From positions 137,144,001 through 137,208,000 of the forward strand of contig OZ024741.1 in the NCBI GenBank assembly GCA_964016885.1: a stretch of 64,000 nt of DNA, read 5' to 3'. The notes beneath the pieces were generated by a model. That model was not told the origin of the DNA, ran no database searches, and worked only from the letters and a program-made list of their open reading frames with translations. The stretch comes from Eledone cirrhosa (taxonomy: Eukaryota). The position numbers and the translations under genes are program-made. This document shows positions 7,788 through 26,553 of this stretch, one piece after another. The first letter of the stretch is position 1. Each line of letters begins with the position of its first letter.

Positions 7788-10035
7788 TATATAATTAATT
7801 AATTAATTTTATTAATATATTGAACCTGTCGATAAATCATTAGATTGCTTCATCTTTTTTTGACTGATTATACACTAAAGTAAAAATAACTTTTCTTCCT
7901 AAATATAAATAAATATAAATATAATAAACTATTCTAGAGAAATATATTGAGAGCTCTTGAAAGGAGAAAATATTTCTTATTTCTTCTTTTTTTTTTATTG
8001 TTTTTTATTGTTCTGATAGCTTCTCCTATTTTCGAAAGTTTATCCTTTCAAAATTTTAAGTTAAATATACGTAAAATAAATTTCTATACTAAATCTATTA
8101 AACATACTATTATTTTGAAATTATAACTTAAAATATTCTATAATATTTTAAAATTGTATTGTTTTTAAAGTTATATTGCTTATAATTATATTTCCAAAAT
8201 ATAATTCTTTTGTATTTTATGTACTCAATTATACTATGTACTGTATTTATATATACTTCTCTCTATATGTGAGTATATATGTATATGTGTGTATTGACAT
8301 ACATGTACATATGTTTTATGCGTTTTTATGAATGTATGTCTGTCTGTATGTATATGTATATGTGATGAGTATCTACCTATTGGTTGAGGGTACATATATA
8401 TATATGTATATGTGGGAATTGTGTATATACATATGCGTGTATATCCATACAATTTGATTGCACTTATGTATAGTGATTATCCCAAGATTCGTGACAGATA
8501 GACGTATAATAACAGCCATAAATACATAACAGGTAATCTTATAAAATTTATATAAAAAAAAAATTTTGTTTAATAACAAAGTGTGTATAACATAAAATTT
8601 CCTTTAATATCTTAACAATTATAAGATTCCTATATTTTAAATTAAATTAAAGAATCCTTTATGTTTTGTGTGTATATATTATAAACGTAGTTAGATATGT
8701 ATATGTATTTTATAAGTGTGTATATATATTTATATGTATTTTTGCGTGTGTATACGTGTTATATGATATGTAGTTCTCGAGTAATATATGGATTTCTTAA
8801 TATATAGATCCCAATTTTTAATATATTGATCTCAATTTTTAATTGATTAACTAAACATCTAATCATATTTAAAGAATGGTTAATTTCTCATATTATGTAT
8901 ATTCCATTCATGATTATTAACATTTCTAATTTTATTTATTCATTTAATCTCAATTCTTAAGTTAACTCAACAAGATATGACTTAGAGTTTTTCGTTCTCT
9001 CCCCTTCTCTCTGTTTCCTCTCTCTCTATATATATCTTTCTCTCTCTGTTGTTTTGGTCTCTCTCTCTCTTTTCTCTCTCTCTCTCTTTTTTCTCTCTCT
9101 CCTTCTTTATCTTTTTCTTTCTCCGTAACCCAACGGCTTATTTTAAAAATAAAAATATCCAATACTAATAATAATATAATTAAAGCTACAACTCCACTAT
9201 CCGGGAGCTTCCAACAGTAATGGTTGCATTTTTAAGGGTATGTCAATATTTATTTATAAAACTGATCTATATTATATTTTATCTAATGAAAGCACACCAT
9301 AATTTAACTTGGTGTCCTTGAAATATATATAAAGAAATAAATATGGTTTTATAAATATAGTTTCCATTTGTTAATATCGTACATATATATATATATATAT
9401 ATATATATATATATATATATATATATATATATATATATATATATATATATATATATATATATATATATATTAGAAAGTGAGGTTTTTTTTACAAAATGAA
9501 AAATAACCGAGGTGGCCTACACGAGTGAAAGTCTAAAGAAAAAGAGATGAAATCGAAAATGCAACTGGAGTCTTATTTTAAAAAAAAATATATATATTTA
9601 TTTAGTTCCTTTACCGGTTTCGTAGTTCTTCTGCTTTTCAAAAGGTGAGTTGAGATGGAGGGTCTGTGGTTTTTCTCACATCTGGTTGGTCTCTGAATGT
9701 TACTTGTTTTATATGGAAAAAGTGGCTCGAAATGCCAGGTTTTTCGAGAAGTAATTTGATTGGTTTGACAATAATTATAATAAATTTCGCGCCAGTTCGC
9801 GTTACAATAGTTCTTCAATTAAGAGGGGGGGGGGTTGTCACAGGTTGTTTTTTCATATATGAGTGTTTGAATTTCTTTTTACTTGAAAAAAGGGGCTCAC
9901 GAAGGCTTTTTTTTGGTTGGTTATAAATGAAATTATGGCTGTCACGTGAACAAGTTTTCATTAAATTTTAGTGCCCTTATTTGGAAATCCATTCTGTAGC
10001 CTTTTTAGAGAATTTTATGATAAGTGAAAGATAAT

Positions 10036-10222
10036 TGTTTCTACCTTTGGCACAAGGCCAGCAATTACCCAGTGCATTACTGGTACTTTATTTTATCGAC
10101 CCCGTAAGGATGAAAGGCAAAGTCAACCTCGGCGGGATTTGAACTCAGATCGTAAAGGGACGTAACTATGCTGGAAAGCATGGCGTCCGACACTCTACCG
10201 ATACTGCCAATCCACCGCCCTT
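10036..10222 (-). mobile_element. Young tRNA-derived SINE with 13-bp target-site duplication
   Basis: TSD agtgaaagataat at 10023-10035 and 10223-10235; the SINE is absent from the other palindrome arm (about 13559-13571). The minus strand has an A-box-like TGGCAGTATCGG and a B-box GAGTTCAAATCC. Confidence 0.93.
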
Positions 10223-13200
10223 AGTGAAAGATAATGGTCAAGAGAAAGGGATGGGAGAATTGTTCTGGTTCAGTGAATATGGTTAGTTCGCTGGGGTGTC
10301 AGAATTCAGATTTTCTATTGAATAAAGAAAGTAAAGATATGTATGTTTATTTGTGTGCTTGTGTGTGTGTGCGTGTGTGTGTGTGTGTATTGTGTGTGTG
10401 TGTGTTTGAATTTCTTTACTTAAAAAAAAGGTGGCTCACGAAGGCTTTTTTTTAATAAACGTGATTTGATTGGTTATAAATGAAATTTGGCTGTCACGTG
10501 AACAAGTTTTCATTACATTTTTTCGCCCTTATTTGGAAATCTATTCTGTAGCCTTTATAGAGAATGTTATGACAAGGGAAAGATAGTGGTCAAGAGAAAT
10601 GGGATTGGGAGAATTGTTCTGGTTCAGTGAATATGGTTAGTTCGCTGGGGTGTCAGAGTTCAGATTTTCTATTGAAGTAAAGATATGTATGTTTATTTGT
10701 GTGCTTGTGTGTGTGTGTGTGTGTGTGTATTGGAAGATGATTCTATTAGTAGAAATGGGGGAGGGAGTTGTGTGTGTGTGTATATGGGTGTTATGTGTGT
10801 GTGTGTGTGCGAGTATGTTAAGATGGAGAGAATATATATTTTGTGTGTGTATATATGTGTGTAGGAAAGTGGTTCTATTAGTAGAAATGGGGGAGGGAGT
10901 TGTGGGTGTGGGGGTTGTTATGTGTGTGTATGGGTGTTATGTGTGTGGGAGTATGGTTAGCATGTTAAGATGAAGAGAATACATATATATATATATTGTG
11001 TGTGTGTGTGTGTGTAGGAAAATGATTCCTTTAGTAGGAATATTTTTGAATGAACATATTTTCCTTACTTATTCGTATTTGTTCTGTTGTATTGTCAGTG
11101 CAAACGTATGTTAAGGTTTATTTAGTTCGGGTTTTTATTTTCTAAAGTAGAAGGTGTTATGTGTGTGTGTGTATATCATATTATGGTGTTGACATAATGT
11201 ATATTAAACCATATTTAATGCTGGTCTATATTTTTGAATAAACATATTTTCCTTATTTATTCGTATTTGTTCTGTTGTATTGTTATCGCAAAGGTAAAAT
11301 GGGAAGACTTGGAATTTGGGTATCTTTTTACTTGCGCAAATGTCTAGATGTGAACTTAGTGGTATCTGTCTCGTGGTTGGATCTCGTAATTGTTGGCGAT
11401 GAACTGTGATTCTGTTTCTGAGTGTGAGTTTAGTTTGTCCTATATAATCTTCATTGCATCCTTTACATTTAATGGCATAAAGTAGATTTTTTGATGAGCA
11501 AGTGAAGTGATTTTTTTACAGTAAAATTTTGTCCTGATTTAAATGTATACGTGTTGCCTTCAATGAGGTGAGTGCAGGTTCCACAATTAGAGCGACCACA
11601 TTTTTTGATACTTGGTTGTGGGTTTGTGGTAGGTAATTTGGCATTGGTGAGTAATGTTTTCAGTGATTTTGGTTGTCTTTTGCTTTTGATTATTTTGTGT
11701 GTTTCAAGGGCTTTTTTCATTCTTGGGTTTTGTTTTAGTAGTGGGATGTTCTTGTGAATAGTGTTGTAAGCTTCCGCATTTCTTGGGTTGTGTGTTGAGA
11801 TATATGATAGAATATTGGACGTACCTTGAATTTGTTTCTGTTTCCGTAATTCATCGATGTCTATTGCTTTAGCCCTTTCTATTCCATTATTTATTAGTAA
11901 TACTCGAGAGAGAGTACCAACTATTACTAATAAATAATGGAATAGAAAGGGCTAAAGCAATAGGCATCGATGAATTACGGAAACAGAAACAAATTCAAGG
12001 TACGTCCAATATTCTATCATATATCTCAACACACAACCTAAGAAATGCGGAAGCTTACAACACTATTCACAAGAACATCCCACTACTAAAACAAAACCCA
12101 AGAATGAAAAAAAGCCCTTAAAACACACAAAATAATCAAAAGCAAAAGACAACCAAAATCACTGAAAACATTACTCACCAATGCCAAATTACCTACCACA
12201 AACCCACAACCAAGTATCAAAAAATGTGGTCGCTCTAATTGTGGAACCTGCACTCACCTCATTGAAGGCAACACGTATACATTTAAATCAGGACAAAATT
12301 TTACTGTAAAAAATCACTTCACTTGCTCATCAAAAAATCTACTTTATGCCATTAAATGTAAAGGATGCAATGAAGATTATATAGGACAAACTAAACTCAC
12401 ACTCAGAAACAGAATCACAGTTCATCGCCAACAATTACGAGATCCAACCACGAGACAGATACCACTAAGTTCACATCTAGACATTTGCGCAAGTAATAAG
12501 ACACCCAAATTCCAAGTCTTCCCATTTTACCTTTGCGATAACAATACAACAGAACAAATACGAATAAATAAGGAAAATATGTTTATTCAAAAATATAGAC
12601 CAGCATTAAATATGGTTTAATATACATTATGTCAACACCACAATATGACATACACACACATAACACCTTCTACTTTAGAAAATAAAAACCCGAACTAAAT
12701 AAACCTTAACATACGTTTGCACTGACAATACAACAGAACAAATACGAATAAGTAAGGAAAATATGTTCATTCAAAAATATTCCTACTAAAGGAATCATTT
12801 TCCTACACACACACACACACACAATATATATATATATGTATTCTCTTCATCTTAACATGCTAACCATACTCCCACACACATAACACCCATACACACACAT
12901 AACAACCCCCACACCCACAACTCCCTCCCCCATTTCTACTAATAGAACCACTTTCCTACACACATATATACACACACAAAATATATATTCTCTCCATCTT
13001 AACATACTCGCACACACACACATAACACCCATATTCACACACACACAACTCCCTCCCCCATTTCTACTAATAGAATCATCTTCCAATACACACACACACA
13101 CAAGCACACAAATAAACATACATATCTTTACTTCAATAGAAAATCTGAACTCTGACACCCCAGCGAACTAACCATATTCACTGAACCAGAACAATTCTCC

Positions 13201-25799: not shown

Positions 25800-25988
25800 C
25801 AGGCGGTGGAGTGGCAGTATCGGTAGAGGGTCGGACGCCATGCTTTCCAGCATAGTTACGTCCCTTTACGATCTGAGTTCAAATCTCGCCGAGGTTGACT
25901 TTGCCTTTCATCCTTACGGGGTCGATAAAATAAAGTACCAGTAATGCACTGGGTAATTTGCTGGCCTTGTGCCTAAAGTAGAAACAAT
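25800..25988 (+). mobile_element. tRNA-derived SINE (same young family as 10036-10222)
   Basis: ggcggtggagtggcagtatcggtagag...ctgagttcaaatctcgccgaggttgactttgcctttcatccttacggggtcgataaaataaagtaccag...agtagaaacaatta. Confidence 0.9.
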
Positions 25989-26109
25989 TACTATATATAT
26001 ATATATATATATATATATAAATAGTCCTGTAGAATTTATATATATATACATATATATATACATACATACAAACACACACATATACATATATATATATATA
26101 TATATATAT

Positions 26110-26553
26110 ATTAATGAAAAATAACAAAGGAGCTATTATGACATTATAACATGTTTATTGCCGACAGCCGTTTCGTCCGACCATATGGTGGGACTTTTCA
26201 AGGCATATAACATGTGATTGTAAGTTCATTATTTACATCAACGTTTCACTCAAGATTAGCAGTTTGAAATCGTGGTATATACCACAATTGCAAACTGCTA
26301 ATCTTGAGTGAAACGTTGATGTAAATAATGAACTTACAATCACATGTTATATGCCTTGAAAAGTCCCACCATATGGTCGGACGAAACGGCTGTCGGCAAT
26401 AAACTTGTTATAATGTCATAATAATTCCTTTGTTCTTTTTCATTAATATTTCTGCTCTGCTTATACGCATAGAGCTTAACTAGCTACCGTCGCATATTTG
26501 GTAGGTCAGGCGTGATCATCGCGATTCACGTACGACCTACCATACATCTTGCT
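26110..26553. mobile_element. Spacer-less fold-back element with structured tail
   Basis: Palindrome 26110-26448 centred on gtggtatataccac (26272-26285). The tail at 26449-26553 contains the hairpin ggtaggtc..cgtgatc/gattcacg..gacctacc. Confidence 0.9.
26352..26398 (+). ncRNA. Hammerhead ribozyme motif, U3-A8 core variant
   Basis: tgcc-TTGAAAA-gtcc-caccatatggtc-ggac-GAAA-cggct-GTC-ggca; all three stems pair and the triplet is GUC. Mirror copy at about 26159-26205 (-). Confidence 0.75.

Follow-up and report, generated by a model that had tools for sequence, protein, structure and literature searches.

Hammerhead motifs with a U3-A8 core pair in palindromic, probably Penelope-like insertions of Eledone cirrhosa

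Hammerhead motifs and their carrier insertions

In a 64,000-nucleotide stretch of Eledone cirrhosa DNA (GenBank assembly GCA_964016885.1, contig OZ024741.1, positions 137,144,001 to 137,208,000, forward strand; hereafter the window, in whose own numbering all coordinates are given) we characterized minimal type I hammerhead ribozyme motifs with the core UUGAAAA, in which U3 and A8 stand in place of the C3 and G8 of the CUGANGA core. The window is AT-rich (GC 25-45%), microsatellite-laden animal DNA with many retroelement pieces, and the motif occurs there in eight copies, two in each of four palindromic insertions in (TA)n tracts. The insertions (elements A, B1, B2 and C) and their parts are as follows (PLE stands for Penelope-like element, pLTR for pseudo-long terminal repeat, ORF for open reading frame and SINE for short interspersed element).

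9470-14056, right arm (+), inverted copy in left arm (-): element A, a 5'-truncated PLE, centre near 11897
12108-12620 (+): C-terminal GIY-YIG endonuclease remnant of A, preceded by a CX4CxxC knuckle (Pfam GIY-YIG, E 1.3e-6)
10031-10222: SINE-like dispersed repeat in the left arm of A only, recognized by its many window copies and its absence from the right arm
13948-13985 (+): hammerhead A (U3 13952, A8 13957, G12 13972, stem III palindrome ACCGGU, A17 13981; predicted cut after 13981)
9608-9645 (-): minus-strand mirror of hammerhead A; its stem II has one mismatch
20546-21136: element B1, a palindromic piece of non-coding pLTR with kinship to A, inserted in (TA)n; of its arms, the right one alone has a tail (33-39 nt)
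20939-20975 (+): hammerhead B, in B1 (U3-A8, A13C at 20964, 3-bp stem I)
20674-20710 (-): mirror copy of hammerhead B in B1, A13C
25034-25464: element B2, the B sequence inserted a second time, with its tail on the left arm
25195-25231 (-): hammerhead B copy in B2, A13C
25306-25342 (+): hammerhead B copy in B2, A13C
26108-26554: element C, a 342-nt palindrome (26108-26449) whose right arm is longer by ~105 nt; it lies in (TA)n and has no ORF remnant
26352-26398 (+): hammerhead C (U3 26356, A8 26361, G12 26383, C17 26394; predicted cut after 26394)
26159-26205 (-): mirror copy of hammerhead C, identical

The original prediction had singled out three plus-strand motifs as intact hammerheads. Those at 13948-13985 and 26352-26398 were borne out letter for letter, each with a 4-bp stem I, UUGAAAA, a 4-bp stem II, GAAA, a self-complementary stem III and UH, while the third, at 20939-20975, reads GCAA for the claimed GAAA and has a stem I of 3 bp, all A-U. 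The A13C change and the short stem I are common to all four B copies (20939, 20674, 25195 and 25306). Thus the type I minimal core (U4 G5 A6 N7, A9, G12 A13 A14, A15.1-U16.1, H17) is complete in A and C and broken by A13C in 4/4 copies of lineage B, and hammerhead B is likely crippled. Positions 3 and 8 are complementary in sequence as U-A in all eight copies. Stems I and II are correctly spaced, with G10.1-C11.1, in A(+) and C, the exceptions being the stem II mismatch at 9608 and the 3-bp stem I of B, and a palindromic stem III is present in every copy (in C an 8-nt palindrome that includes G-U pairs). A and C are predicted to be minimal type I hammerheads that would cut 3' of H17, weakly and as pairs.

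Element A is a 4.6-kb palindrome between (TA)n tracts, with ~65 extra terminal nt on the left arm. In a self-BLAST, 10223-13571 aligned to itself in inverted orientation at 97% and 9534-10038 aligned with 13556-14059 at 96.8%; the SINE-like repeat between the two left-arm blocks would be a later insertion. The right arm reads from an ORF end (knuckle, GIY-YIG, stop) into ~1.3 kb of non-coding sequence that ends in the ribozyme. Relatives of this ORF numbered 25 among 157 candidates, the best being 72% identical and 772 aa long, with a reverse transcriptase (RT) followed by GIY-YIG. The RT is absent from the window copy and present only in full-length relatives, and the knuckle is found in both. 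Since a CX2-5CxxC knuckle together with a C-terminal endonuclease marks the Neptune and Nematis clades (Craig et al. 2021, PMC8557442), element A carries the marks of a PLE of one of these two types. EN+ elements of those clades also share with A the inverted 5'-truncated copy, the one-sided tail and the microsatellite target; they differ from it in that the window copy lacks the RT, and A and C have tails (~65 and ~105 nt, respectively) longer than the 30-40 nt that is usual.

B1 and B2 are identical at 240 of 242 nt, have different centres and lie in unrelated flanks, and would therefore be two insertions from one A13C template. The A, B and C insertions share one anatomy, i.e., 5' truncation with an inverted copy, a one-sided tail, a microsatellite target and a hammerhead near the 3' end, which matches the Penelope pattern of inverted 5'-truncated copies, one-sided tails and (TA)n targets described in PMC8557442. 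Together with the GIY-YIG remnant in A, this anatomy upholds the earlier assignment of the motifs to the minimal hammerheads of PLEs. B and C are probably pLTR ends of such elements, a reading based for B on the one-sided tail and the kinship with A, and for C solely on anatomy.

The U3-A8 pair as the consensus of family A

Four of 24 listed sequencing runs were compared with positions 13760-14050 at 80% likeness, with differences listed from 2%. Run X1 gave 6,899 records, of which 2,329 were at least 99% identical to the window copy, 2,508 were at 95-99%, 1,505 at 90-95% and 557 below 90%. In this run, whose contigs drop rare variants and which possibly has the same source as the window, no other letter reached 2% at core positions 13952-13958 or 13972-13975, and therefore U3-A8 is the consensus of family A, whose copies are not decayed CUGANGA copies. 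The comparison, made for family A only, could have returned CUGANGA and did not, so that for this family the prediction of a genuine variant core stood. Differences within the motif were seen at 13948 (54%) and at 13962, 13971, 13977 and 13978 (2-4% each, the last three in CpG). The letters of B (A13C) were not listed at 2%, which in this comparison may reflect rarity or failure to reach the 80% cut alike. Summed depth rose ~7-fold between 13860 (90 nt upstream) and the ribozyme, which fits a pile-up of 3' ends, and four strand-switch joints fell just upstream of or inside the motif.

Cross-species support from runs X4 (13 records), X9 (1 record) and X19 (1 read from 1,869 million letters) was rejected, because these are possibly stray DNA; X4 and X9 carry near-identical sequence at low depth under other organism labels.

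Two U3-A8 lineages and the C3-G8 lineages of the window

The motifs had been ascribed to three separate families in dissimilar flanking contexts. The flanks upstream of 13948 (A) and 20939 (B) align at 74% identity over 82 nt with the ribozyme excluded (E 2.7e-8, a score reached in 0 of 1000 shuffles), and C showed no similarity to the flanks of A or B, so that there are two U3-A8 lineages (A/B and C) and the description of dissimilar contexts holds for 26352 only, the other two being homologous. Three further lineages in the window have C3-G8 hammerheads, represented by the following features.

14346-14381 (+): C3-G8 minimal hammerhead of another family
15646-15716 (-): C3-G8 hammerhead in a palindromic insertion, with a related family at 56654-56720 (-) and 58437-58503 (+)
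30989-31028 (+): C3-G8 hammerhead at the end of a Hydra-type PLE (28888-31062), with relatives at 4185-4872

None of these five lineages (two U3-A8, three C3-G8) has a mixed state at positions 3 and 8. A and B agree at 22 of 23 positions of the core, stem II and stem III, compared with 62 of 78 in the flank (binomial P = 0.035; Fisher P = 0.057), and in stem I one pair is swapped from C-G to U-A; the comparison of core with flank lends modest support to selection on the ribozyme sequence.

Predicted folding

For the A dimer, the minimum-energy fold is a double hammerhead (-22.5 kcal/mol, compared with 2 x -7.5 kcal/mol), in which the stem III pairs have P 0.92-1.0, against 0.0 for the monomer; among A, B and C, it is the lowest-energy dimer for A only. 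All four insertions point outward, so that read-through would make the antisense arm first, and the window copies are therefore likely silent in place, including those that likely lie in an intron of a host channel gene (see below).

Comparison with published hammerheads

The U3-A8 variant of PLE hammerheads is already published in its own context, and the window adds further members. Cervera and De la Pena (2014, PMC4209133) reported it in a Cercyon PLE of Schistosoma mansoni, with ~1,300 matches to their own descriptor; their 56 representative motifs comprise 53 with C3-G8, two with U3-A8 (one of them with the same UUGAAAA core, in a PLE) and one with U3-G8. The Cercyon elements (families Sm3/Sm4, row S. 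mansoni(4)) resemble the window copies in the UUGAAAA core, type I architecture, short stem I, palindromic 15.2-16.2 region and location in PLE repeats, and occur as opposite-strand pairs 100-700 bp apart. Compared with the S. mansoni rows, the window motifs lack the additional nucleotide that separates A9 from stem II, their stem II is shorter and their stem III palindrome is longer (6-8 nt); A and B have A17 where the two published U3-A8 rows have U17 and G17, so that the combination of U3-A8 with A17 is in neither row; and element A is of Neptune or Nematis type by its knuckle. Hammerheads of PLEs from shrimp (MjPLE01), Aedes, Drosophila and rotifers (PMC4209133) share the palindromic stem III insert that implies cleavage as dimers, and the shrimp row, as in A and B, has A17 and no extra nucleotide, but all of these rows are C3-G8.

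Perreault et al. (2011, PMC3088659) described natural U3-A8 covariation in several hammerheads and stated, citing another paper, that covariant pairs are active in vitro. The section in question does not tie these hammerheads to PLEs, and the authors credit tertiary contacts with offsetting core variation, none of which is evident in the window motifs. The non-LTR retrozymes (PMC7229834; bioRxiv 10.64898/2026.07.22.740005) resemble B and C as non-coding, PLE-derived units with type I hammerheads, but they form head-to-tail tandem arrays; no head-to-tail units were found among the window copies, all of which are single inverted pairs and so cannot give sense dimers in cis. A paper on the giant squid gives hammerhead counts from Rfam only. 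Our literature search, in which few subscription papers were covered, found PLE hammerheads with U3-A8 reported from S. mansoni alone, and no mention of a U3-A17 trap.

Interpretation and alternative explanations

Taken together, we consider it probable that these are minimal type I hammerheads at the 3' ends of palindromic (TA)n insertions, A with a PLE endonuclease remnant, in which U3-A8, the consensus of family A, likely replaces C3-G8, and which would cleave slowly, and only as a pair of copies. Within a master element's tandem transcript, two copies would join by the stem III palindrome and exchange strands of stem I, giving a double hammerhead, U3-A8 would hold nucleotide 8 in place, and cleavage would follow after H17, possibly helped by the element's protein. 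A and C would cut the master's tandem transcript slowly as such dimers, which is compatible with reports that minimal PLE hammerheads cleave weakly and as dimers (PMC4209133, PMC6765202) and that one PLE hammerhead cleaved only with the element's protein (PMC11167929). The swap would have arisen or been acquired in both lineages, A/B and C, and lineage B would later have gained A13C and lost stem I pairs while still being mobilised in trans; since B, though likely crippled, was inserted twice, cleavage is likely not needed for such mobilisation.

Several observations weigh against a functional U3-A8 ribozyme of this kind. Element C has no coding link to PLEs, with neither an ORF nor flank homology to A or B. 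About 54% of the X1 depth carries a stem I variant (13948 with 13947) that puts an A-G mismatch into outer stem I, and the invariance of the family A core is a matter of consensus and inheritance, not selection, as 4,837 of 6,899 X1 records are at least 95% identical to the window copy. In the dimer fold of A, U3 also pairs with A17 (P 0.59), which is equivalent to the C3-G17 trap put forward for variants with G17; those variants were 8- to 100-fold slower (PMC3884650). The double hammerhead is not the lowest-energy dimer for C (-26.3 vs -40.8 kcal/mol, in a model of C without stem extensions) or B (-8.7 vs -20.1 kcal/mol), and monomer folds did not exceed those of shuffles in stability (z from -0.5 to -1.1). 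When a type III hammerhead was scanned for all pairwise mutants, rescue of the 3/8 pair came from the G-C swap alone, and the other double mutants had low activity (PMC9901934). The statistics for selection are marginal, with P 0.035-0.057 for core against flank and Fisher P = 0.1 for lineage-level covariation at 3/8 in the window (two versus three lineages); counting related families apart gives P = 0.03, a value that overstates independence. The original prediction that the double change implies a selected ribozyme was thus right in that the pair is inherited and not copy decay, and overstated as to selection. Strong function is made less credible by the modelled U3-A17 trap, the antisense-first arms and A13C in two of the four insertions.

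The alternative that survives best, though we regard it as unlikely, is that the motifs are fossils, i.e., that C3U and G8A transitions occurred in the master element of an AT-rich genome and left a dead or nearly dead motif that is carried along, being dispensable to the element. The two changes are both transitions in the A/U direction within a window of low GC content, lineage B was inserted twice with A13C, and hammerhead mutants had no effect on insertion in vitro by purified PLE protein (PMC11167929); U-A failed to rescue in the scan cited above, and the U3-G8 family among the 56 published representatives implies that position 3 can change alone. However, the same double change is found in two unrelated window lineages, with no mixed state, and again in two of those 56 representatives, the stems and palindrome are intact in A and C, and the A-B core is better kept than its flank.

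The U3-A17 pair may be read in yet another way, as an off switch in A and B, in which A17 and A8 would compete for U3, the A17 pair covering the cleavage site (trapped) and the A8 pair giving the active state, and the RT-endonuclease protein would tip the balance, timing cleavage to transposition; we hold this to be a doubtful proposal, less probable than fossil motifs.

Co-option by the host concerns two exons of a Cys-loop ligand-gated channel gene, with several retroelement insertions between them.

21852-22237 (-): last (M4) exon of the channel gene (Pfam PF02932 at 21852-22238; AG acceptor)
35797-36108 (-): M2-M3 exon of the same gene (Pfam PF02932)

B2 and C lie between these exons and thus likely in an intron, and their minus-strand copies could in principle cut the channel pre-mRNA, as the copy at 26159-26205 (-) is intact and in sense with the gene. 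We consider this very improbable, for that copy sits within the 342-nt hairpin of C (96% paired, -269 kcal/mol; in the hairpins formed by the three short insertions, pairing is 89-97%), where transcription would reach the antisense arm first, and the arms of C are 96% identical (163/169), as in a recent insertion.

Least probable of all is that the motifs are chance matches in AT-rich repeats: although a looser descriptor yields 0.84 matches per shuffled window (0.05 of them U3-A8; 100 shuffles) compared with eight in the window (four U3-A8, four C3-G8), a strict descriptor gave three window matches, all U3-A8, and none in 30 windows shuffled block-wise by dinucleotide (in these counts the two mirror copies of a pair are not independent), and every motif lies near an arm end of a PLE-like insertion, the same place as the C3-G8 hammerheads of other families. 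A chance origin is excluded for A and C and still likely for 59099(+), a weak match that is one of the four U3-A8 matches of the looser descriptor and that may be due to chance; it was left out, as likely chance, together with the weak candidates 63651(-) and 6739(-).

A metagenome pattern with positions 3 and 8 left free gave at least 119 matches, at least 11 of which had stems I and II of at least 3 bp, and the low share with both stems (11/119 among the matches listed) speaks for a yield mostly due to chance. The matches listed with both stems comprise seven C3-G8, three U3-C8 (one sequence), one U3-G8 and no U3-A8, and were not used. Seven metagenome loci (L005, L006, L017, L037, L045, L050 and L079) are C3-G8 type I hammerheads with a CCGG stem III palindrome as in family A. 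In viral contigs, PLE protein alignment confirmed 0 of 16 candidates and the family C pattern had two matches, neither with a type I stem I; in prokaryote genomes, the family A/B pattern had three matches, all without stem I and taken as chance. None of the 138 window matches to Rfam covariance models at E up to 1 belonged to a hammerhead family, the matches being hairpin and microsatellite artefacts; Rfam also missed the C3-G8 copies of the window, so that the miss is not attributable to the core swap alone.

Other features of the window

The comparator at 14346-14381 belongs to a repeat family ending in (CA)n, with copies at 14301-14585 and 43577-43862, the second of which lost G12. The palindromic insertions 15603-15939 and 56555-58602 carry C3-G8 hammerheads in which stem I has 8 bp and stem II is long and irregular. 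Element 28888-31062 is of Hydra type by its CxCX5C linker (PMC8557442); it has a truncated copy in inverted orientation and, at both ends, a C3-G8 hammerhead whose stem III contains a 6-nt palindrome. A related fragment lies at 4185-4872. The ORF at 6180-7787 (+), of 535 codons, is 36% identical to ORF 29877-30806 and has the same linker but no Pfam match, and no hammerhead was found behind it, though Hydra-clade elements are said always to carry one.

The SINE-like repeat of element A is abundant (10031-10222, 16452-16663, 25802-26000, 26815-26969, 32196-32386, 62310-62543 and others), and 27021-28370 is a tandem array of short degenerate units of ~22 nt. Further short palindromes (16230-16342, 24796-24937, 45073-45312, 49940-50041, 50699-50810 and 56342-56467), several beside (TA)n and with no hammerhead found in them, are possibly very short inverted retroelement ends. 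Mobile-element fragments at 17822-18676, 38676-39314, 60622-61149 and 62966-64000 include RT-like frames and a piece of a mariner-type transposase, the Pfam matches of the 17822 and 60622 fragments being below curated cut-offs.

Implications

The variant described in S. mansoni PLEs gains two U3-A8 lineages from the window, one being a very abundant family, so that the swap seems to be a recurrent one. PLE ribozymes are undercounted when hammerheads are counted with CUGANGA strings. With an intact C17 motif in C, an A17 motif with a possible trap in A and an A13C motif inserted twice in B, the window constitutes a small natural test set on the need of PLEs for their hammerheads.

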